Positions 6,607 to 63,611 of a stretch of DNA of 64,000 nt are shown here, one piece after another. The position numbers and the translations under genes were made by a program. The notes below the pieces were generated by a model. It saw only the letters and a list, made by a program, of their open reading frames with translations. It had not been told where the DNA came from and searched no databases. Positions within the stretch are counted from its first letter, which is position 1. The number at the start of each line of letters is the position of its first letter. The stretch comes from Octopus vulgaris (taxonomy: Eukaryota), in NCBI GenBank assembly GCA_951406725.2, contig OX597819.1:114638001-114702000 (forward strand). Direction: 5' to 3'.

Positions 6607-6774
6607 AACAAAGCAGAGGTAAAGTAATGTCTTCACATGACGTACTTCTACTACTGCTTACACGAAACTCCAAAATGCCTTCTGTTGTCTGAATGATATA
6701 CGTTACTCTTTTTAAGAAATTCAATGAGTCCATCTTATAAACATCCAGGGGTGTTAATGTCTATCACCACAAAG

Positions 6775-7080
6775 ATATTGCACATATTTCCCTGAATGTT
6801 GTCTGCTTTTCACAACACTCTGTCCTCATTGCTATGAATCATAACTCACTGGTAGGTCATTATTACAGTTCATTGTGTGATTAGGGACACCACTAGTGTC
6901 ACAGTAAAACTCCAATATTAAAGAAATCAAATTGGGAAAATGTAAGTGTTTGAATCATCTTTCCTACTTAAGTTTACTAATTTTGTCCCATATTGTGATA
7001 CTAGATTGTAAGATGAATCTGTTGAGTTAAACCAAGTAGAATGTATATTAATCTGTAACTTGATACAAGCAGAATACCAC
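6775..7080 (+). promoter_or_regulatory. Orphan copy of the GPCR upstream module with no downstream CDS
   Basis: Aligns to the region 300-650 bp upstream of copies 1, 6 and 7 (cctgaatgttgtc.., gtgtttgaatcatc.., atgtatattaatctgtaac). It ends at taccac. Confidence 0.6.
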
Positions 7081-11634: not shown

Positions 11635-12567
11635 ATGAATGCTACTCATTTGTCTTATTCTGTTTTGTTTACAAGATTAGTTGTTTTTAGTATGATACCT
11701 TTCTTCCTAATTGTGGGACTCATAGGTAACATATTTGTGATATATATTTATGCACGACAGTCCCAGAAAAGCTATGTAGAAACATTCATCCTTGTATTAG
11801 CTGTCATTGATCTCATTGGATGTATCTTTGGAATGCCTCTGGAAATGGCTGAACTTTACCCAGCGATTCAATCAAAATATTTGTGTAAATTATACAAGTT
11901 TGTTGTCTTCATGTGTTCTACCATGTCATCCCTCATTCTTCTTATAATTGCCATTGAAAGATTCAGAAGGATATGTCATCCATCTAGCAAACAAATTACT
12001 TCAAAGATGTGCATTACTCTTATTATTTTCCTAATCGTAGCACATCTGTTGTATTGGTACTGCCACCTGTTTTCTACACTGAGGGTGTTCCCTTTTCTCT
12101 TGAAAGCAAGGTGTATATGATATGTGGCAGTGACTTCAGAAGACCATTCCTCTTGTTATATGCTCTCATGGCATTAATTATACACAGTATTGTTGTCCTC
12201 AACATGACTGTACTTTATTCATTTGTTCGGAACACGATTTATAAGCATTTCAAGAAAGAAAAAAATAATGAAGAAACTTCGGAACATGAACGAATCAGTC
12301 GCACAAACATTGTGCTTATCTCGATTTCTGTTTTGTATTTTGTCGGTTTTTCACCAACTCTAATATTTTCTGTGGTCATATATCCATATTGTGTAAGATT
12401 CTATCCTGTTACAGATATTTGAAAGTAATTGTATATCGTACTTGGATACTAAATTCATCCTTAAATCCCATGGTGTATGGATTTTGCAACAAAATGTTTT
12501 CCAGAAAAGTTTTGTAAATATATTTACTAGGGACAAAACTGGCTTTGAAATGGAAGAGAAATTTTAG
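11635..12567 (+). pseudogene. GPCR copy 2, frameshifted (pseudogene or consensus artefact)
   Basis: Full-length homology from ATG to FEMEEKF-stop, but 933 nt rather than 924 nt. Insertions of +2 (about 12041), +3 (about 12361-12374), +1 (about 12396), +1 (about 12421) and +2 (about 12500). Confidence 0.85.
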
Positions 12568-20092: not shown

Positions 20093-21016
20093 ATGAATGC
20101 ACCCCATTTGTCTGATCCTGTTTTGTTTACAAGATTAATTGTTTTTAGTCTCATACCTTTCTTCCTAATTGTGGGACTCATAGGTAACATATTTGTGGTA
20201 TATATTTATGCACGACAGTCCCAGAAAAGCAATGTAGAAACATTCATCCTTGTACTGGCTGTTACTGATCTCATTGGATGTATCCTTGGAATGCCTCTGG
20301 AAATGGCTGAACTTTACCCAGCAATTCAATCAAATTATTTGTGTAAATTATACAGGTTTATTGTCCTCACCTGTTCTATCATGTCATCCCTCATTCTTCT
20401 CACAGTTGCCGTCGAAAGGTTCAGAAAAATATGTTGTCCACATGGAAAACAAATTACTCCAAAACTACGCAATATCCTTGTGATTTTCATAACTGTAACA
20501 TCTGTTGTATTGGTACTGCCACCTGTTTTCTACACTGAGGGTGTTCCCTTTTCTCTTGAAAGCAAGGTGTATATGATATGTGGCTGTGATTTTAGAAGGT
20601 TATTTCTCTGGATATATGCTTTCATGGCATTAATTGTTCATAGTATTCTTCTCTACTGCATGACTGTACTTTATTTAATTGTTTTGAAGACTATCAATCA
20701 GCAATTCAAGAAAAAGCAAAGTAAAAAAGCAACTTTTGAGCAGGAACAAATCAACCACACAAGCATTGTATTTTTCTCAATTTCTGTTTTATATTTTGTG
20801 AGTTTTACACCAACTCTTATTTTCTTGGTCATATATCCATATTGTGTAAATTCTATCCTGTTACAGATATTTAAAGTAATTGTATATCGTACTTGGATAC
20901 TAAATTCATCCTTAAATCCTATGGTGTATGGATTTTGCAACAAAATGTTTTGGAAAAGTTTTGTAAATATATTTACGAGGAGTAAAAGTAACTTTGAAAT
21001 GGAGGAGAAATTTTAG
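20093..21016 (+). CDS. Intronless class A orphan GPCR, copy 3, 307 aa
   Basis: Intact ORF with GN, LAVTD, ERF, SFTP and NPMVY motifs. N-terminus is MNAP, so the sequon is lost. Confidence 0.95.
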   Translation: MNAPHLSDPVLFTRLIVFSLIPFFLIVGLIGNIFVVYIYARQSQKSNVETFILVLAVTDLIGCILGMPLEMAELYPAIQSNYLCKLYRFIVLTCSIMSSLILLTVAVERFRKICCPHGKQITPKLRNILVIFITVTSVVLVLPPVFYTEGVPFSLESKVYMICGCDFRRLFLWIYAFMALIVHSILLYCMTVLYLIVLKTINQQFKKKQSKKATFEQEQINHTSIVFFSISVLYFVSFTPTLIFLVIYPYCVNSILLQIFKVIVYRTWILNSSLNPMVYGFCNKMFWKSFVNIFTRSKSNFEMEEKF

Positions 21017-39444: not shown

Positions 39445-39805
39445 ATGAATGCAACCCATTTGTCTGATTCTGTTTTGTTTCCAAGATTAGTTGTTTTTAG
39501 TATGATACCTTTCTTCCTAATTGTGGGACTCGTTGGTAACATATTTGTGATATATATTTATGCACGACAGTCCCAGAAAAGCAATGTAGAAACATTCATC
39601 CTTGTATTAGCTGTTATTGATCTCATTGGATGTATTTTTGGAATGCCTCTGGAAATGGCTGAACTCTACCTGGCAATACAATCAAACTATTTGTGCAGAT
39701 TTTACAAGTTTGTTGTCTTCACCTGTTCTATTATTTCGTCTTCATTCTTCTTACCATTGCTATTGAAAGGTTCACAAGAATATGTTTTCCACATAGTAAA
39801 CAAAT
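39445..39805 (+). pseudogene. GPCR copy 5, truncated after TM3/ICL2
   Basis: TM1-TM3 homology, a 1-bp deletion near 39740, and homology ending at aaacaaat (39805). Confidence 0.92.
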
Positions 39806-39937
39806 ACTAATAATAACAAATTAGGAAATTTTAAGTGTTTGAATCATCCTTCCTATGTAAATTTTCTAAATTTGTCCCCAGATTTGTATTGTCCCTATTT
39901 GTTTTCTGTTCGGTCCCTTGTGGTCAATGAAGAAATG

Positions 39938-40970
39938 ATTATTACCTCTGCCTTAGCAAAGCCAGAGGTATTGTTTTCAGTGGTGTTTGTTCTTTGTCCG
40001 TGGACAAGATATCCCAACAACCGCTGGATGGAACTGTCAGGGACGTTTGGCTACATGACTGGCATGGGCTGATTAGATTTTGGGATTGATCCAGTACCAG
40101 ACAAGGATTCTGGATTATTTGTTATATTTACTTTACATGATGTATTATGATCTTACGTTGACTTTCAAGTCTTTCTCTGATTATCTCCCTTGAAAGCTTG
40201 CTCATTGTTTCCACGTAAGGTATGGTGACATTGCTGACCCCCAAGTTTTCTTTTCGTTTCTCTATTATTAATTTTACTCGTATTTCTAACATAGTAGAAA
40301 TTGATGGATGATGGATAAAGAAATCAAACTACATAAACAAACTGCAGCAAAGCTGTTCAGAAATTAAATAACTCTAACGTATTCAGTAACAATAATGAAT
40401 TTAATTTCTTCTTCACAATTTTTATTTTTACCAATCTTGAATATATTGCTCCTGTTTAAAACCTCTTACCTACTTGACAATTACATTTCTAGCTAAGCTT
40501 TACTTATTGGACTGACGTTTTGCGCGCAACATTGTTGTTAAACCTCTGTTAACAGTACCCTGTGCAGGTCCTGTCCATTTTCTTTCACACACAGATGAAT
40601 TTTTCATTATAGACCTTAATGGTTGTAAAGACATTATATCAGTGAATAGACTAAAGAAGACCTTCGGAGACAAAACTGTCCACGTTCCCACAGCGGACAA
40701 CACACACACACACATTACAATCATGGCCCACACATCCACCTTCATATTTCATTTCTACCATTGGGATCGATCTAGTACTGGACAAGGATTTTGGATTATT
40801 TTTCCATTTTTTTTTTTTTTTTACCTAATTTTTGAGAGTGCTTGAGTTCACTTTTAGTATTCTAATTTGTGAGAGCAGTCAGGTTTATTTCAGATATTCT
40901 CATTTTAAAAATCATCTCCGGCTAATCGCTGAGAGGATGCTGATGTTGCCTTGGCAGAGGTTTGTGCTCT
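39938..40970 (+). mobile_element. Helentron/HINE-like element with captured internal sequence (copy at 44510-45535)
   Basis: 5' ttattacctctgcc..gccagaggt and 3' ccttggcagaggtttgtgctct sub-terminal inverted repeats. Confidence 0.65.
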
Positions 40971-40975
40971 TGTTG

Positions 40976-41019
<44 letters not shown>

Positions 41020-41983
41020 GTTGTTATTATTAAAGTAGTGAGGTGGCAGAATTGTTGGTGTACCTGACAGAATTCTCAGTGCTATTTTGTCTGTCATAAA
41101 ATTCTGATTTCAAATTCTGCAGAGCTCAGCTATGTACTGCCCATTATTAATGTGGTTTCCCTTGTGTGGGTTCTGAGTAGTTCCGCTGCTCCTTAGCTCA
41201 ATCAGTGGTGAGATTCTCCTATTCTGTTGTGAGGTTTGGTACATGCTTGCCCTAAGTTCATCAAGCAAGTCTCATCAGCACAACTGTTGCGAGTTTTGTT
41301 ATTCATCTGCCAAAAGGTCATCAAACAAGTCTGCCATATAAATATATATAAACCATACAGTAACCTATTTAAAGCAGGTCACTTGCCCCTCATATGGCTA
41401 CATATTGCTGCTTTTATCTCCCTGAATGTTGTCCGCTTTTCACGACACTCTGCCTCCATTGTCAAAAGTCACAGCTTACTAATAAGTTAGACATTGAAGT
41501 CCATTGTTCAATCAGAGACACCACTTGTACAGGACAATGAAATAGCAAAGGACAGCCGTAATACTAATAATTAGTTAGGAAAATGTGTTTGAATCATCCT
41601 TCCTATGTAAATTTTCTAAATTTGTCCAATATTGCAATGCCGTAATCTTAAGTTAAATCATAAACTAAGCAAATCAGGATGTGTACTAATTTGTAAATGC
41701 ATATAAGTTGGATACCACACAACCTATTGCATTTGACTTTCATAATTCGCTCTGGATGTTTACTTCACATAGTAGTTGTATTCATGTAAGGACTTAACTA
41801 CGACAACTCCAGTATACGAGTTTGGATTACAAACAATGTTACGACAATAATCATTTTGCTTACCTACAAGTACATTCTGTGAAATTGTTGCATACATACA
41901 TATATATATATAAATGAACACACATCATATCTGCATATCAACTATCAACATATTTATATAATACTCACTAAACTTGTTTCAAC

Positions 41984-42907
41984 ATGAATGCAACCCATTT
42001 GTCTGATCCTGTTTCGATTTCAAGATTAATCGTTTTTAGTATGATACCTTTCTTCCTAATTGTGGGACTCGTTGGTAACATGTTTGTGGTATATATTTAT
42101 GCATGCCAATCCCAGAAAAGCAATGTAGAAACATTTATCCTTGTACTGGCTGTCATTGATCTCATTGGATGTATCCTTGGAATGCCTCTGGAAATGGCTG
42201 AACTTTACCCAGCAATTCAATCAAATTATTTGTGTAAATTATACAAGTTTGTTGTCTTCATGTGTTCTATCATGTCATCCTTTATTCTTTTTACGATTGC
42301 CATTGAAAGGTTCACAAAAGTATGTTGTCCACTTAGTAAACAAATTACTCCAAAACTACGCAATTCTCTTATCATTTTCATCGTTGTATTATCAGTTGCA
42401 TTGGTACTGCCACTTGTTTTCTACGCAAATGGTGTTCCCATTTTTCATGAAAACACAATGTTTATGAAATGTGCCAATGTCTTTAGAGGATCATTTCTTT
42501 GGTTATATGTTCTCATGGCATTAATTGCTCATAATATTCTTGTCCTCATTATGACTGTACTTTATTCATTTGTTCGGAAGACTATTAATCAGCGTTTGAA
42601 GAAAAAGCAAAGTAAAGAAGAATCTTCTCAACAAGAACGAATCCGTCACACAGACATTGTACTTGTCACAATCTCAATTTTGTTTTGTGTGAGTTTTACA
42701 CCGATCCTGCTTTTTTTGATCATATATCCATATTGTAAAGAGTCTAACTTATTACAGATTTTGAAAGTAGTTTTACTTCGTACTTGGATACTAAGTTCAT
42801 CCTTAAATCCCATGGTGTATGGATTTTGTAACAAAATATTCCGCGAAAGTTTTGTAAATATATTTACTAGGAGTAAAATTGTCTTTGAAATGGAGCAGAA
42901 ATTTTAG
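41984..42907 (+). CDS. Intronless class A orphan GPCR, copy 6, 307 aa
   Basis: Intact ORF with GN, LAVID, ERF, SFTP and SSSLNPMVY. Confidence 0.95.
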   Translation: MNATHLSDPVSISRLIVFSMIPFFLIVGLVGNMFVVYIYACQSQKSNVETFILVLAVIDLIGCILGMPLEMAELYPAIQSNYLCKLYKFVVFMCSIMSSFILFTIAIERFTKVCCPLSKQITPKLRNSLIIFIVVLSVALVLPLVFYANGVPIFHENTMFMKCANVFRGSFLWLYVLMALIAHNILVLIMTVLYSFVRKTINQRLKKKQSKEESSQQERIRHTDIVLVTISILFCVSFTPILLFLIIYPYCKESNLLQILKVVLLRTWILSSSLNPMVYGFCNKIFRESFVNIFTRSKIVFEMEQKF

Positions 42908-43530
42908 AATTTGGTTTACACTACACTTTCAATAGAGGGGAATACTTTCAAGCAGCAGAGACAGCTATTTTGCTAACAATTTTTAACAAAATACACTGTT
43001 TTTTCTTTGTGATTTTTGTGCAATATTGAAAATAGCTCACAAAGTTTGAAGTATTTAATGAAATAACCAACTTGCTCGTTATTTTGCTGATGTTTGGACA
43101 TGATTAAATTTTCTTTCATAAAATTTGAATGTTTAAATTTAAATGTGAATCTTTTAGAATATGCTATTTTGATCCTTGACCCAGAGTCAATGTAAGGTAA
43201 GTTAGTATCAGAAAAGTCTATTTGAACTCTTAAACAATTTCTCTATTGTATATATGTTTTAGTTTCTGTTGTTAGTTTATACCATCCATGAAACATAACT
43301 GTTTGTGTAAGTTCTACTTTAAACTTAAAACCATTTGGATCCTACAGTTTCCATATTACATGTGAAATATTCATTAAAAGAGAACTGAAAAGAAAAACTA
43401 AATTGTTGCCGTTATTGTTGCCACTGTAATCATCATCCTCATCATAATCATGATGGTGATCATCATACAAGAAATCTAAGTTGTTATTGGTTTTGAAATT
43501 GTTTCAGAATTGCTGAAAATCATTTTCATA

Positions 43531-44508
43531 CAGACCAATGAAGGTGGCTTGGCACCTGGAGTGTTGGCAAGTTCTCACAGCTTTCTGCTAATTAGGCAAC
43601 GCAGTCTGTGGAAGTTCCACCATGGAGTTCTATAGAAGATTAGTGGTGGGCAAGAGCGACGATGTCCTCGGGGAAACTCAGGGAGTCGGAAGGAATCAAT
43701 TAACTGGTCTTTTCTGGAAGGCTTTCAGGCCAGGGCCTATGGATAACTTCCAGAAATCCGTCGCCTGACAGTGCTATCAGGGAGCTCTGCTGATTTGAGA
43801 CAAGCTGTACAGACACAGAATTACTGTCAGACACACCTGTACGAGGTGTTGGAAGGGTAACACAACCATCCTGCATGCTCTGACCCAGTGTCCGTGTATT
43901 AGTGATTTGTAGAGCTTTCTTGAACAGCTGTTATCATGTGTAGGATGGATCTGGTTATCAGCCAAGTCCATCATGAAGATCACTCCATTTTCTTTTGGCC
44001 AGGATAGAAAGGCAGTTTTCCTCTGTCTGGTGGCTATGGCGAAGGAGTTAGTGTGGTGGATGAGATTGAAAGGACTGAAGATGGTTACTTTCCTCTTTGG
44101 CCAAGCCTTCATTGGCCATTTCAAGTTTCACTTGAATAGAGAAGTGAGAGTAGAGAAGGAAGTTCTGCTCCCCTCCCCCAGTAAATTTGTGAAAGGTGGT
44201 TGCGTTTGGCAAGGATGGCCTGTGTGAACGGGCCTACTCTGAACTTTCATTCATAGACCAGGGGATTTGAAGAGGAGAGAGGCGTCTACTGAGGTGCATC
44301 TGGCGGATGGGATAACCAGAATGTGTGAGATTCCTCAGTTGTCCCTGTGAGGAACACCCAGCTTTTGGTGAATTTTATTGTTTAATTGTATTGTTAATTG
44401 TCATTATTTTATTGTTTGCTTGATTTTTGTGTTAAACCCCACATGTCCCCAGATTTGTATTGTCCCTATTTGTTTTCTGTTCGGTCCCTTGTGGTCAATG
44501 AAGAAATG
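43531..44508 (+). mobile_element. Tx1/L1-clade LINE 3' fragment
   Basis: C..C..TILHALTQCP knuckle, then AVFLCLVAMAKELVWWMRLKG..HFKFHL, a T-rich 3' UTR and tail cccttgtggtcaatgaagaaat. Confidence 0.7.
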
Positions 44509-45530
44509 ATTATTACCTCTGCCTTAGCAAAGCCAGAGGTATTGTTTTCAGTCATGTTTGTTGTTTGTCCGTGGACAAGATATCCCAACAACTGCTGGAT
44601 GGAACTGTCAGGGACGTTTGTCTACATGATTGGCATGAGCTGAATAGATTTTGGGATTGATCCAGTACCAGACAAGGATTCTGGATTATTTGTTATATTT
44701 ACTTTACATGATGTATTATGATCTTACGTTGACTTTCAAGTCTTTCTCTGATTATCTCCCTTGAAAGCATGCTCATTGTTTCCACGTAAGGTATGGTGAC
44801 ATTGCTGACCCCCAAGTTTTCTTTTTGTTTCTCTATTATTAATTTTACTCGTATTTCTAACATAGAAATTGATGGATGATGGATAAAGAAATCGAACTAC
44901 ATAAACAAACGGCAGCAAAGCTGTTCAGAAATTAAATAACTCTAACATATTCAGTAACAATAATGAATTTAATTTCTTCTTCACAATTTTTATTTTTACC
45001 AATCTTGAATATATTGCTCCTGTTTAAAACCTCTTACCTACTTGACAATTACATTTCTATCTAAGTTTTACTTATTGGACTGATGTTTTGCGTGCAACAT
45101 TGTTGTTAAACCTCTGTTAACAGTACCCTGTGCAGGTCCTGTCCATTTTCTTTCACACACAGATGAATTTTTCATTATAGACCTTAATGGTTGTAAAGAT
45201 ATTATATCAGTGAATAGACTAAAGAAGACCTTCGGAGACAAAACTGTCCACGTTCCCACAGCGGACAACACACACACACACAACATTACAATCATGGCCC
45301 ACACATCCACCTTCATATTTCATTTCTACCATTGGGATCGATCTAGTACTGGACAAGGATTTTGAATTATTTTTCTGTTTTCTTTTTTTTTACCTAATTT
45401 TTGAGAGTGCTTTGAGTTCACTTTTAGTATTCTAATTTGTGAGAGCAGTCAGGTTTATTTCAGATATTCTCATTTTAAAAATCATCTCCGGTTAATCGCT
45501 GAGAGGATGCTGATGTTGCCTTGGCAGAGG

Positions 45531-45572
<42 letters not shown>

Positions 45573-46540
45573 GTTGTTATTATTAAAGTAGTGAGGTGGC
45601 AGAATTGTCGGTGTACCTGACAGAATTCTCAGTGCTATTTTGTCTGTCATAAAATTCTGATTTCAAATTCTGCAGAGCTCAGCTATGTACTGCCCGTTAT
45701 TAATGTGGTTTCCCTTGTGTGGTTTCTGAGTAGTTCCGCTGCTCCTTAGCTCAATCAGTGGTGAGATTCTCCTATTCTGTTGTGAGGTTTGGTACATGCT
45801 TGCCCTAAGTTCATCAAGCAAGTCTCATCAGCACAACTGTTGCGAGTTTTGTTATTCATCTGCCAAAAGGTCATCAAATAAGTCTGCCATATAAATGTAT
45901 ATAAACCATACAGTAACCTATTTAAAGCAGGTCACTTGCCCCTCATATGGCTACATATTGCTGCTTTTATCTCCCTGAATGTTGTCCGCTTTTCACGACA
46001 CTCTGCCTCCATTGTCAAAAGTCACAGCTTACTAATAAGTTAGACATTGAAGTCCATTGTTCAATCAGAGACACCACTTGTACTGGACAATGAAATAGCA
46101 AAGGACAGCTGCAATACTAATAACAAATTAGGAAAATGTAAGTGTTTGAATCATCCTTCCTATGTAAATTTTCTAAATTTGTCCAATATTGCAATGCCGT
46201 AATCTTAAGTTAAATCATAAACTAAGCAAATCAGGATGTGTACTAATTTGTAAATGCATATAAGTAGGATACCACACAACCTATTGCATTTGACTTTCAT
46301 AATTCGCTCTGGATGTTTACTTCACATAGTAGTTGTATTCATGTAAGGACTTAACTACGACAACTCCAGTATACGAGTTTGGATTACAAACAATGTTACG
46401 ACAATAATCATTTTGCTTACCTACAAGTACATTCTGTGAAATTGTTGCACACATACATATATATATATAAATGAACAAACATCATATCTGCATATCAACT
46501 ATCAACATATTTATATAATACTCACTAAACTTGTTTCAAC

Positions 46541-47464
46541 ATGAATGCAACCCATTTGTCTGATCCTGTTTCAATTTCAAGATTAGTTGTTTTTAGTATG
46601 ATACCTTTCTTCCTAATTGTGGGACTCGTTGGTAACATGTTTGTGGTATATATTTATGCATGCCAATCCCAGAAAAGCAATGTAGAAACATTCATCCTTG
46701 TACTGGCTGTCATTGATCTCATTGGATGTATCCTTGGAATGCCTCTGGAAATGGTTGAACTCTACCCTGCAATTCAATCAATATATTTGTGCAGATTTTA
46801 CAAGTTTGTTGTCTTCATCTGTTCAACCATGTCATCCTTTATTCTTTTTACGATTGCCATTGAAAGGTTCACAAGAGTATGTCGTCCACTTAGTAAACAA
46901 ATTACTCCAAAACTACGCAATTCTCTTATCATTTTCATCATTGTATTATCAATTGCCATGGTACTGCCACCTGTTTTCTACACAGAAGGTGTTCCCATTT
47001 TTCATGAAAACACAGTGTTTATGAAATGTGCCAATGTTTTTAGAGGATCATTTCTTTGGTCATATGTTGTCATGGCATTAATTGTTCAGAGTATTCTTGT
47101 CCTCATCATCACTGTACTTTATTCATTTGTTCGGAAGACTATTAATCAGCGTTTGAAGAAAAAGCAAAGTAAAGAAGAATCTTCTCAACAAGAACGAATC
47201 CGTCACACAGACATTGTACTTGTCACAATCTCAATTTTGTTTTGTGTGAGTTTTACACCGGTCCTGCTTTTTTCGATCATATATCCATATTGTAAAGAGT
47301 CTAACTTATTACAGATTTTGAAAGTAGTTTTACTTCGTACTTGGATACTAAGTTCATCCTTAAATCCCATGGTGTATGGATTTTGTAACAAAATATTCCG
47401 CGAAAGTTTTTTAAATATATTTACTAGGAGTAAAATTGTCTTTGAAATGGAGCAGAAATTTTAG
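46541..47464 (+). CDS. Intronless class A orphan GPCR, copy 7, 307 aa
   Basis: Intact ORF with the same motifs as copy 6. Confidence 0.95.
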   Translation: MNATHLSDPVSISRLVVFSMIPFFLIVGLVGNMFVVYIYACQSQKSNVETFILVLAVIDLIGCILGMPLEMVELYPAIQSIYLCRFYKFVVFICSTMSSFILFTIAIERFTRVCRPLSKQITPKLRNSLIIFIIVLSIAMVLPPVFYTEGVPIFHENTVFMKCANVFRGSFLWSYVVMALIVQSILVLIITVLYSFVRKTINQRLKKKQSKEESSQQERIRHTDIVLVTISILFCVSFTPVLLFSIIYPYCKESNLLQILKVVLLRTWILSSSLNPMVYGFCNKIFRESFLNIFTRSKIVFEMEQKF

Positions 47465-48177
47465 AATTTGGTTTACACTACACTTTCAATAGAGGGGAAT
47501 ACTTTCAAGCAGCAGAGACAGCTATTTTGCTAACAATTTTTAACAAAATACACTGTTTTTTCTTTGTGATTTTTGTGCAATATTGAAAATAGCTCAAAGT
47601 TTGAAGTATTTAATGAAATAACCAACTTGCTCATTATTTTGCTGATGTTTGGACATAATTAAATTTTCTTTCATAAACTTTGAATGTTTAAATTTAAATG
47701 TGAACCTTTTAGAATATGTTATTTTGATCCTTGACCCAGAGTCAATGTAAGGTAAGTTAGTATCAGAAATGTCTATTTGAACACTTAAGCAATTTCTCTA
47801 TTGTATATTTGTTTTAGTTTCTGTTGTTAGTTTATACCATCCATGAAACATAACTGTTTGTGTAAGTTCTACTCAAAACCATTTGGATCCTACAGTTTCC
47901 ATATTACATATGAAATATTCATTAAAAGAGAACTGAAAAGAAAAACTAAATTGTTGCTCTTGTTGTTGCCACTGTAATCATCATCATCATTTTCATCATC
48001 ATCATCATCATCATTGTCCTCATCATCATCATCTTCATCATCATCATCATTATCATCATGGTGATCATCATTCAAGAAATCTAAGTTGTTATTGGTTTTG
48101 AAATTGTTTCAGAATTGCTGAAAATCATTTTCATACCAGTGCAGTCATGAAAGAAGTGTGTTCCTATCTTTGATATA

Positions 48178-55154: not shown

Positions 55155-55562
55155 ACCTGCCAAAAGTTCACCAAACAAGTCTGGCATATAAATGTATAAA
55201 ACTCATAGAGTAAACTATTTAAGGCAAGTGATTTTTCTCCTTGTGCAGCTAGATATTGCTGCGCATATTCCTCTGAATGTTGTCTGCTTTTCAAAACATT
55301 CTGCTGCCAATTCCAGGAATCACACCACACTGGGGAAGGTGTCATTACAGTCCATTGTGTGATTAGGGTCACCACTTGTGTCACAGTAAAGCTCCAATAT
55401 TAAATCAAATTTCAGAAATATAAGTGTTTGAATCATCTTTCATACTTAAGTTTCCTAATTTTGTCCAATATTGTGATACTGGATTGTAAGATGAATCTGT
55501 TAAGTTCAAACAAGTAGGATGTATATTAATCTGTAACTTTCTACAAGCAGATTACCACACAA
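55155..55562 (+). promoter_or_regulatory. Second orphan GPCR upstream module
   Basis: Homologous to 6775-7080 and to the gene-upstream modules. It ends at the same taccac point. Confidence 0.6.
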
Positions 55563-55607
55563 CTTTTTTTCACCAATGGGATCCAAGCACAACGACAATA
55601 ATAATAA

Positions 55608-62630: not shown

Positions 62631-63611
62631 ATGAATGCAACACTATTCACTAATCCAGTTATATTTTCAAGAGTAGTTGTTTTTACCATCATACCTTTCT
62701 TCCTAATTACGGGACTTATAGGTAACATGTTTGTGGCATATATTTACACACGTCAATCTCAGAAAAGCAATGTAGAAACATTCATCCTGTTACTAGCAGT
62801 CATTGATCTGGTTGGATGTGGCTTTGGAATGCCAATGGAAATGGCTGAACTCTCCTTTAAAATTCAAACAAAGTATTTGTGTAAACTGTACAAGTTCATT
62901 ATTTTCAACTGTTATATTATGTCATCCTTCATTCAGTTTACAATTGCTGTTGAACTCTTCAAAAGAATATGCCATCCACTTCGAAAACAAATTCTTACAA
63001 TTGCCATGGAGCGCTTCAGAAAAAAATGCCATCCACTTCGCAAACAGCTTACTCCAAAACTACACCAGATTCTTATAATTTTTATGGCAGTAACATCAGT
63101 TGTAGCATCACTACCGGTTATCTTCTACATTGACACCATGCCATTTTCCCAGGAATTGAAAGCCTATAAAGTCTGTGGTAGTAGTCTTAGTGGGTCTTTT
63201 GTTTGGTCATATGCTGTAGCAGCATTGATTGTTCATGGTATTTTTTTACTGACCATGACTGTGCTTTATTCTTTTATCTGGAACACTATTACTAAGCGTT
63301 TGAAGAAAAAACAAGGTAAAGAAGAAGCTTCCAGACAAGATGGAGTCAACTGCACAAACATTGTACTTTTCTCAATCTCTGTTTTGTATTTTGTCAGTTT
63401 TACACCAACCCTTGTCTTCTGTGTCATATACTCACATTACAATGATTCTAACTTATTACAGATATTTAAAGTAGTTTTATATCGTACTTGGATACTAAAC
63501 TCCTCCTTAAATCCCATAGTGTATGGATTCTGTAACAAAATATTCCAGAAAAGTTTTGTAAATATTTTTATTAGTGGTAAAGGTGACTTTGAAATTGTGG
63601 AGAAATTTTAG
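62631..63611 (+). CDS. Intronless class A orphan GPCR, copy 9, 326 aa, with an in-frame 19-aa duplication at TM3/ICL2
   Basis: Intact ORF containing FTIAVELFKRICHPLRKQI followed by LTIAMERFRKKCHPLRKQL. Confidence 0.9.
   Translation: MNATLFTNPVIFSRVVVFTIIPFFLITGLIGNMFVAYIYTRQSQKSNVETFILLLAVIDLVGCGFGMPMEMAELSFKIQTKYLCKLYKFIIFNCYIMSSFIQFTIAVELFKRICHPLRKQILTIAMERFRKKCHPLRKQLTPKLHQILIIFMAVTSVVASLPVIFYIDTMPFSQELKAYKVCGSSLSGSFVWSYAVAALIVHGIFLLTMTVLYSFIWNTITKRLKKKQGKEEASRQDGVNCTNIVLFSISVLYFVSFTPTLVFCVIYSHYNDSNLLQIFKVVLYRTWILNSSLNPIVYGFCNKIFQKSFVNIFISGKGDFEIVEKF

Follow-up and report, generated by a model that had tools for sequence, protein, structure and literature searches.

Divergence within a tandem pair of class A GPCR genes in an Octopus vulgaris receptor array

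The copy 6/7 pair and its receptor array

The window (the whole stretch of Octopus vulgaris DNA analysed, 64 kb) holds an array of nine receptor gene copies. Two of them, copies 6 and 7, form a pair of intact class A GPCR genes within a 3.6-kb tandem duplicate that lies 3' of a broken sister gene, copy 5.

41984..42907, + strand: copy 6 coding sequence, single-ORF class A GPCR of 307 aa (ORF, Pfam 7tm_1, AlphaFold2)
46541..47464, + strand: copy 7 coding sequence, single-ORF class A GPCR of 307 aa (ORF, Pfam, contigs of X5 and X12)
39873..43466, + strand: copy 6 duplicated unit (2.1 kb upstream, CDS, 0.56 kb downstream)
44444..48014, + strand: copy 7 duplicated unit, from alignment to the copy 6 unit
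39445..39876, + strand: copy 5, a frameshifted, truncated sister gene, with a 70-nt remnant of the copy 5/6/7-type upstream region

The two units share 96.3% identity across 3602 columns, and the copy 6 unit begins at a short microhomology 3' of the copy 5 remnant. The sequence-only reading that preceded this analysis described both ORFs as clean, and two intact 307-aa reading frames were indeed found. Pfam 7tm_1 scored 105.6 bits for copy 6 and 111.1 bits for copy 7 (curated cut-off 30.5), and the AlphaFold2 model of copy 6 has seven helices at a pLDDT of 91.8. Along with this seven-helix fold, the class A set N1.50, D2.50, C3.25, E/D-R3.50, P6.50 and NPxxY is present; the landmarks N32, D59, C84, R109, P240 and N275/P276/Y279 are kept in at least 90% of 135 aligned sequences.

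In fold and ECL2 beta-hairpin the pair resembles peptide receptors of solved structure (CCK1R, orexin, NPY Y2, PrRP, NPFF; Foldseek TM-score 0.7-0.83), but identity is only 16-24% and the octopus copies have W4.50, P5.50 and W6.48 replaced. The best sequence match to these receptors reached 63 bits, with many (NPY, NPFF, CCK, orexin) matching about equally. The database labels NPY-, NPFF- and melatonin-like contradict one another and do not denote orthology.

The closest database proteins, at 63-78% identity, include A0A0L8HM69, HNL1, HM91, HMG6, HM63, HMH1 and HM67, the seven group 1 genes given for Scaffold18646 in supplement table S2 (PMC6408891). All 17 close matches are from Octopus, and beyond group 1 the next relatives share at most 38% identity. 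On this similarity, the array appears to belong to cephalopod GPCR group 1, as the counterpart of the Octopus bimaculoides Scaffold18646 cluster (Ritschard 2019, PMC6408891). The exact copy 6 protein was absent from the protein collection searched. As far as the available text of Ritschard 2019 goes, it describes tandem clusters and branch-level positive selection with no individual site at a BEB of at least 95%, and the O. bimaculoides cluster is expressed broadly, in skin, sucker, nerve cord, viscera and testes; conversion is raised there as a possibility without a mapped tract, and the young copy 6/7 pair is absent from its analysis. The array is tandem, lineage-restricted and extracellularly variable, as chemosensory-type expansions are. 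Lophotrochozoan class A expansions are likewise tandem and lineage-specific with more variable extracellular TM segments (PMC11886862), but the cephalopod expansions are reported there to be without the conserved TM3-ECL2 disulfide, whereas in the octopus array C84 never varies and C163 has a conservation of 90% or more.

Where copies 6 and 7 differ

The proteins had been estimated to differ at about 25 residues, and exactly 25 were counted: 16, 72, 81, 85, 86, 93, 96, 112, 115, 134, 138, 140, 144, 148, 149, 159, 174, 177, 182, 183, 184, 190, 241, 245 and 291. Their reported concentration at residues 72-190 plus 241 and 245 was borne out, with 21 of them within 72-190, a clustering beyond chance (119-codon scan, p = 1.5e-4). 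The extracellular half of the receptor also carries 21/25. ICL1, ICL3 and TM7 are identical, as had been stated (0 differences each), and the expected divergence of the extracellular loops stands for ECL2 (3 differences) but not for ECL1 and ECL3 (0 each). Thirteen of the 25 changes are BLOSUM62-positive, and the sites at which the pair differs vary family-wide too (entropy 1.47 vs 0.75, p = 6e-7). The pair was chosen for its extreme look, and the first extracellular boundary was set once the positions were known; among eight other full-length pairs, extracellular bias was weak in the same direction in two (p = 0.04-0.05), opposite in one and lacking in five.

Divergence of the CDS (37/924 nt, 4.0%) exceeded that of the 5' flank (37/2089, 1.8%; Fisher p = 4.8e-4) and of all flank (59/2639; p = 0.006). 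Differences in the 5' flank are spread evenly (p = 0.62), as expected of one event. The description of the flanks as near-identical thus fits the 5' flank and the 168 nt after the stop (0 differences) but fails at 43078-43420, where 14/336 positions (4.2%) differ. One block stands out for its similarity:

42554..43077, + strand: near-identical block (codons 191-307 plus 170 nt) with 3 differences, all replacements

The replacements lie at 241 (6.51), 245 (6.55) and 291, and the 524 nt contain zero synonymous or non-coding differences (min-scan p = 0.036; third-position run, global p = 0.063). Homogenisation between copies 6 and 7 here is possible, although statistically non-significant.

The intracellular face, which had been thought constant, carries the replacements K112R, C115R, M190I and V291L. 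These four replacements in the intracellular half, against a neutral expectation of 6.7, are in line with an omega of 0.52 for the family background; omega in this half stays at 0.3-0.6, and ICL3 is family-wide among the most variable segments (entropy 1.21). The apparent constancy is ordinary purifying selection at about 2% divergence.

Targeting of the ligand pocket, also proposed earlier, depended on the contact list. With the published list (Table 2 of PMC2650788), 6-7 of 23 contacts differ vs 13-14 of 175 other TM positions (p = 0.003-0.016), positions being assigned by generic numbering and not as contacts measured on a model. By contrast, two larger lists (30 and 44 positions) gave no significant enrichment (p = 0.12-0.16), and the pocket was not significantly enriched over the rest of the extracellular half (p = 0.06-0.16). 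AlphaFold2 run on 23 close sequences returned a pLDDT of 47.8 and was unusable.

Probable gene conversion and selection

The three motifs on which a mosaic origin had been argued are all present in the sequence, but only the block that copy 6 shares with copy 3 forms a significant tract.

42157..42245, + strand: conversion tract in copy 6 (CDS nt 174-262, codons 58-87, TM2-ECL1-top of TM3), identical to copy 3
20266..20354, + strand: matching copy 3 stretch, the putative donor, one base away from copy 4

Over this tract copy 6 shows 0/89 differences to copy 3 and 8 to copy 7; the match with copy 3 spans 28-29 polymorphic sites in a row (p < 0.001 and 0.014, global permutation). The partition tree of the tract groups copy 6 with copies 3 and 4 at a bootstrap of just 60, and in a third-position-only test the copy 3-copy 6 tract, which sits in conserved TM2, was absent from the top eight pairs. 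We infer that conversion ran into copy 6. Five of the eight copy 7 bases within the tract also occur in other paralogs, which places the difference before the duplication. The tract explains 4/25 residues (72, 81, 85 and 86), none at a standard pocket position. Conversion in this receptor cluster was not reported in the papers found, most subscription journals lying outside that search.

The CRFYK and LPPVFYTEGVP blocks of copy 7 look like older states retained. Copies 2-4 were rejected as LPPVFYTEGVP donors (synonymous mismatches at codons 148 and 149; run global p = 0.56), as was copy 5 as the CRFYK donor, with which 3 bases are shared yet 8/89 nt differ across the stretch. The remaining 21 residues, for which none of the nine window copies offers a donor, resemble point substitutions acquired on the two branches. 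Elsewhere in the array, copies 2 and 3 are identical across nt 406-492, a further exchange.

Fast divergence was found in the segment from TM4 to TM5:

42383..42553, + strand: fast-diverged TM4-ECL2-TM5 segment of copy 6 (codons 134-190), 17 nt and 13 residues different
46940..47110, + strand: the copy 7 counterpart

Here the copies differ by about 14 nonsynonymous to 3 synonymous changes. The extracellular half without the tract holds 18 replacements, where the flank mutation spectrum predicts 5.1 (p = 8e-6; scan-corrected p = 5e-5); two alternative boundaries gave 14 vs 4.5 and 18 vs 5.6. With the 5' flank as clock, extracellular omega on the copy 6/7 branches was about 3 to 3.5 (vs 1, p = 7e-5 to about 1e-4), two of the four flank counts in the codon model being approximate, 25/1230 and 52/2600 (exact 24/1206 and 51/2593). 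From the CDS only, omega was 2.0, above a background of about 0.7 (p = 0.017) but not significantly above 1 (p = 0.12, purpose-built codon model). Whole-gene pN/pS was 0.76-1.0. Synonymous changes outside the tract also tilt towards the extracellular half (5 vs 2.1 expected, p = 0.06), and a clock of 2.5 times the flank rate there reduces the replacement excess to p = 0.10. Both halves of the earlier proposal, mosaic conversion and/or positive selection, are thus supported, but conversion covers only those four residues and selection is clock-dependent.

Array-wide, extracellular omega was 0.74 vs 0.52 (p = 0.001). The M7/M8 comparison that the sequence-only reading had suggested, run array-wide with tracts masked, showed a better fit for M8 than for M7 or M8a (p = 0.002 in each case) and placed about 9.5% of sites at an omega of about 3; without copy 6 it still gave p = 0.013. 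A single site, 198, which is intracellular, passed a posterior of 0.9. Compared with O. bimaculoides P0001, a two-gene chimeric model and presumed ortholog, the state shared by copies 6 and 7 differs at 8 sites of codons 134-190 (6, 8 and 10 in three other cross-species pairs); copy 6 has 7 private changes, copy 7 has 3, and all differ at 3 more sites.

Explanations for the divergence

We consider it probable that the 25 differences go back to a conversion patch donated by copy 3/4 to copy 6, together with positive selection on TM4-ECL2-TM5 point mutations. A 3.6-kb tandem duplication, which the flank divergence of about 2% would date, would have produced copies 6 and 7, and a short patch would have passed from copy 3/4 to copy 6. 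The replacement excess suggests that selection likely acted on TM4-ECL2-TM5 point mutations in both copies, changes that would retune ligand preference. By generic numbering, the TM2/TM3/TM7 side of the pocket, whose residues E70, E73, Y87, K88, K261 and R266 have low family entropy, is predicted to give the receptors a common anchoring site for a peptide-like ligand, with variation on the TM4/5/6 side. Among GPCRs, olfactory, vomeronasal and taste receptors are known for duplication, conversion and selection acting on their extracellular halves; since all three are textbook, the pattern will not surprise specialists. It is a familiar process in an already catalogued receptor cluster.

It is possible, though distinctly less probable, that the TM4-TM5 segment is older than its flanks, coming from a lost sister copy or persisting as an island spared by homogenisation (the Teshima-Innan pattern), with the usual family omega near 1 and without a post-duplication burst. 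Synonymous divergence in codons 134-190 is 3/47 (6.4%) vs about 2% in the flanks, and the 524-nt block free of synonymous and non-coding differences and the copy 2/3 exchange point the same way. The import of an older segment would also fit the 14:3 ratio (p = 0.09-0.27), and, as the CDS-only omega does not significantly exceed 1, a lost sister copy may have been its source. The remnant of another unit's upstream region after copy 5 and two full-depth X5 contigs that resemble the copy 5 upstream region indicate that further sister copies existed. However, none of the nine window copies is a donor, X5 lacks a second contig at least 88% identical over 42395-42553, and copy 6/7 conversion around the segment is not significant (global p = 0.063 at third positions, 0.49 at all sites). 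Copies 6 and 7 lie 18 and 14 sites from P0001 vs 6-10 in the three cross-species pairs, for which age alone is insufficient, and the persistence of an island would itself require selection. The islands of divergence of Teshima and Innan 2008 (as cited in PMC3728101; RH and opsin examples) similarly peak within the CDS above flank level, but the sole significant copy 6 tract derives from a third paralog.

Relaxed constraint after duplication, a single conversion tract and the choice of a pair that looked extreme would together dispense with adaptive change altogether. Four of the nine window copies are broken or aberrant (copies 2, 4, 5 and 9), whole-gene pN/pS is about 1 and many changes are conservative. 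We nevertheless regard this as very unlikely: replacements at 3.5 times the flank rate exceed what relaxation can give, intracellular omega stays at 0.3-0.6, both ORFs are intact and copy 7 states are kept in the related organism B.

That two alleles of one locus were set in tandem, or that base errors were made, is barely credible despite frameshifts in other copies, a copy 6-type contig in run X1 at half the copy 7-type depth (10.5 vs 22.1) and a unit junction spanned by none of the contigs listed, given that X1 holds both types across 42365-42583 with 15/17 copy 7 bases on one contig, that shared stretches in X2 have a depth of 113-116 vs about 52-70 for single copy, and that the organism B copy is much nearer copy 7 than copy 6 is. 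Both types occur in public contigs and the divergence is therefore not an assembly artefact, in agreement with the earlier view that this pair is less exposed to such artefacts than copy 2. The copy 5 frameshift and truncation joint also recur in contigs of X2 and X5. The TM6 differences were not seen in X1 and X2 contigs; this was left unused as evidence because isolated differences look collapsed there (41709 at full depth).

Beyond the preferred combination of a conversion patch and selected point mutations, it is conceivable, but rather doubtful, that new receptors arise in the array when paralogs exchange pocket modules, in at least two Octopus species, with selection tuning them afterwards. 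TM2-ECL1-TM3 would be the anchor module and TM4-ECL2-TM5 the specificity module, and candidate cases would be copy 3 into copy 6, copy 3 into copy 2, and O. bimaculoides P0015 (copy 7-like front, copy 3-like body). Copy 6 would then be a very young, possibly still segregating, receptor of new specificity, and the pair a natural matched set for a group 1 ligand search. In any case, with 92% identity and one member apparently lacking from a close relative, the two receptors are handy for ligand screens. The pair narrows the branch-level signal of Ritschard 2019 (PMC6408891) to TM4-ECL2-TM5, and the conversion tracts documented in the cluster can bias trees and selection tests there. Only the copy 7 type was seen in X5, and copy 7 states are retained in organism B; contigs of this type also occur in X12, a probable RNA run although none of the runs listed is recorded as RNA, and the copy 7 type is likely transcribed in that organism.

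Gene array and family membership

The array comprises nine copies of a class A GPCR gene with a single ORF, all on one strand, starting at the following positions.

Copy 1: 1768 (spans 1768-2691)
Copy 2: 11635, frameshifted
Copy 3: 20093
Copy 4: 28505, frameshifted
Copy 5: 39445, frameshifted and truncated
Copy 6: 41984 (spans 41984-42907)
Copy 7: 46541
Copy 8: 59740
Copy 9: 62631 (spans 62631-63611)

Copy 9 has a 19-codon insertion. Where its TM3 ends, 57 nt are duplicated internally and in frame, and the first repeat reads ELF instead of ERF. All 17 close database matches were Octopus proteins (63-78% identity), and relatives beyond these reached at most 38% identity. Seven accessions among the close matches and their cluster members are the group 1 genes that Ritschard et al. 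2019 list on O. bimaculoides Scaffold18646, so both the family and its tandem cluster were already catalogued. Homologs of the copy 6 upstream region (68-70%) were also seen at 55157-55563 and 6773-7080, neither directly followed by a GPCR ORF; these may be what is left of deleted copies, or distal parts of promoters.

Divergence and probable conversion in copies 6 and 7

Copies 6 and 7 each lie within a 3.6-kb unit, and the two units share 96.3% identity. As the sequence-only reading had claimed, their coding sequences diverge beyond their flanks, with 37 of 924 nt differing compared to 37 of 2089 nt, spread evenly, in the 5' flank (p = 4.8e-4). The 3' flank showed 0/168 differences followed by 14/336. 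The coding changes alter 25 residues, and another 9 codons differ only synonymously. Topology was assigned using an AlphaFold2 model (pLDDT 91.8) and residue anchors (N32, D59, R109, V134 aligned to W4.50, Y194 taken as 5.58, P240 and P276). On the modelled topology 21 of 144 residues differ in the extracellular half and 4 of 162 in the intracellular half (p = 1e-4); this boundary was set after the sites were known, and the excess persists with two others. The spacer between the units (43467-44443) consists of a decayed high-copy repeat. All three of its minus-strand frames contain stops, and it probably derives from a retroelement. Copies 2, 3 and 4 (8300-31600) lie in repeated units of about 8.4 kb that are 96.8-98.8% identical, whilst the coding sequences of copies 2 and 3 are only 87% identical. 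This pair is a second instance of coding divergence far higher than in the flanks.

A GENECONV-type permutation test on seven near-full copies (21 pairs) found two globally significant runs, between copies 3 and 6 (nt 174-262) and copies 2 and 3 (nt 406-492). Within nt 174-262, copy 6 differs from copies 3, 4 and 2 at 0, 1 and 3 sites and from copy 7 at 8. Five of these 8 copy 7 bases are common to other paralogs, and F86 of copy 7 also occurs in the O. bimaculoides proteins P0001 and P0015. The simplest reading is that a patch from copy 3 or 4 was copied into copy 6, accounting for residues 72, 81, 85 and 86 and 8 of the 37 nt. The tract is well supported but not beyond doubt, because in a third-position-only test the pair fell outside the top 8 and tree support was 60. 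Mosaic conversion had been proposed for three shared blocks; it is supported for the one shared by copies 6 and 3 but not for the other two, where P144, T148 and E149 are states of the outgroup P0001 and the copy 7 codons differ synonymously from those of copies 2-4.

Probable selection and the ligand pocket

Outside the tract, a permutation test found no donor among the copies in the window, and changes fall on both branches. Under the flank mutation spectrum, 18 replacements were observed against 5.1 expected in the extracellular half (tract removed) and 4 against 6.7 in the intracellular half, with 7 synonymous changes against 4.8. Codon models with flank clocks gave an omega of 3.0-3.5 (p = 7e-5 to 6e-4 versus 1). 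Without a flank clock, omega was 2.0, significant versus background (p = 0.017) but not versus 1 (p = 0.12).

The clock is the weak point of the selection argument. If the TM4-ECL2-TM5 segment (codons 134-190) were 2.5 times older than the flanks, the replacement excess would lose significance (p = 0.10), and the synonymous count is compatible with such an age (p = 0.09). Against this, copies 6 and 7 lie 18 and 14 residues from P0001 across these codons, whereas the state they share is at a distance of 8, in line with three other cross-species pairs (6, 8 and 10). The proposed M7/M8 comparison favoured selection across the whole array with tracts masked, M8 fitting better than M7 and M8a (p = 0.002; p = 0.013 without copy 6; p = 0.02-0.03 on the 5 clean ORFs). 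These site models were coded for this analysis and not run in codeml; they used 6 beta classes and M0 branch lengths after scaling.

The pocket itself had been proposed as the target. Of the 23 contact positions in Table 2 of PMC2650788, 6-7 differ between copies 6 and 7 (96, 144, 182, 183, 241, 245, plus 174 by one TM5 numbering). This is an enrichment versus all TM positions (p = 0.003-0.016) but is unclear within the extracellular half (p = 0.06-0.16; 0.02-0.08 with the tract removed). With larger contact-position lists, pocket enrichment was not significant. The polar residues E70, E73, Y87, K88, K261 and R266 of TM2, TM3 and TM7 are equal in both copies and vary little across the family, and the model has an ECL2 hairpin and fold matches to peptide receptors. 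Together these features suggest a shared TM2/TM3/TM7 anchor for a putative peptide-like ligand, with a variable TM4/5/6 side.

Ritschard et al. 2019 already report group 1 tandem clusters and selection at branch level, without sites. In PMC11886862, lophotrochozoan expansions are described as more variable in their extracellular TM segments, and PMC3728101 describes islands of divergence under conversion. The finding in copies 6 and 7 is real, is localised more finely than in the portions of those papers that were consulted, and represents a known process within a known family.

Sequencing runs and other mosaics

Contigs, which demonstrate presence and not absence, were compared for 4 of the 24 runs listed. 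Run X1 has two contigs over 42365-42583: the first carries 15 of the 17 copy 7 bases (depth 22.1), and the second is of copy 6 type with 2 differences (depth 10.5). The copy 6 type thus has half the depth, although depth is noisy; copy 6 is possibly hemizygous, segregating for presence or absence. Run X2 has a depth of about 115 over shared stretches compared to about 52-70 for seemingly single-copy contigs.

In run X5, from organism B, a relative of organism A, an unbroken contig (42231-42807, depth 60.3) has 28 differences from copy 6. Eighteen copy 7 bases are explicitly listed, and the total is consistent with all 25 copy 7 bases to 42553 plus 3 others. On the 3' side, a further X5 contig carries 16 substitutions together with 9 gap letters, counts equal to those of copy 7. 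The organism B copy is therefore copy 7-like, far nearer copy 7 than copy 6 is, and hence the duplication is older than the A/B split. The copy 6 type was not seen among the X5 contigs, which again show presence and not absence.

Run X12, taken as RNA by guess only, has copy 7-type contigs over the coding sequence and about 300 nt further, but zero depth over the repeat at 43236-44475, which is hundreds to thousands deep in DNA runs. Copy 7 is thus likely transcribed. P152S, at a family-invariant proline (42437), is on the X1 copy 6-type and X5 copy 7-type contigs, and the X1 copy 7-type contig seemingly lacks copy 7 bases at 42383 and 42534; these patterns could be short exchanges between copies 6 and 7 or contig mosaics.

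Copies 2 and 3 are identical over nt 406-492 (about 12040-12130; global p < 0.001), a stretch that encodes the top of TM4 and ECL2. The exchange was likely from copy 3 to copy 2, because O. sinensis P0003, an intact look-alike, has its own sequence there. The last 70 codons of copy 2 have several indels and the C-terminus looks copy 3-like. P0015 combines a copy 7-like TM2-TM3 (91%) with a body that resembles copy 3 (86% in 134-190). Together with a gene order on Scaffold18646 unlike that in the window, this suggests segment exchange in O. bimaculoides as well. P0001 is probably two merged genes, since its model spans 8.4 kb and its C-terminal part equals P0006. Copy 1, judged by sequence comparison, is another mosaic: from residue 101 onward it matches O. 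sinensis P0004 at 94-100% identity, but 14 of 56 residues differ in 2-57.
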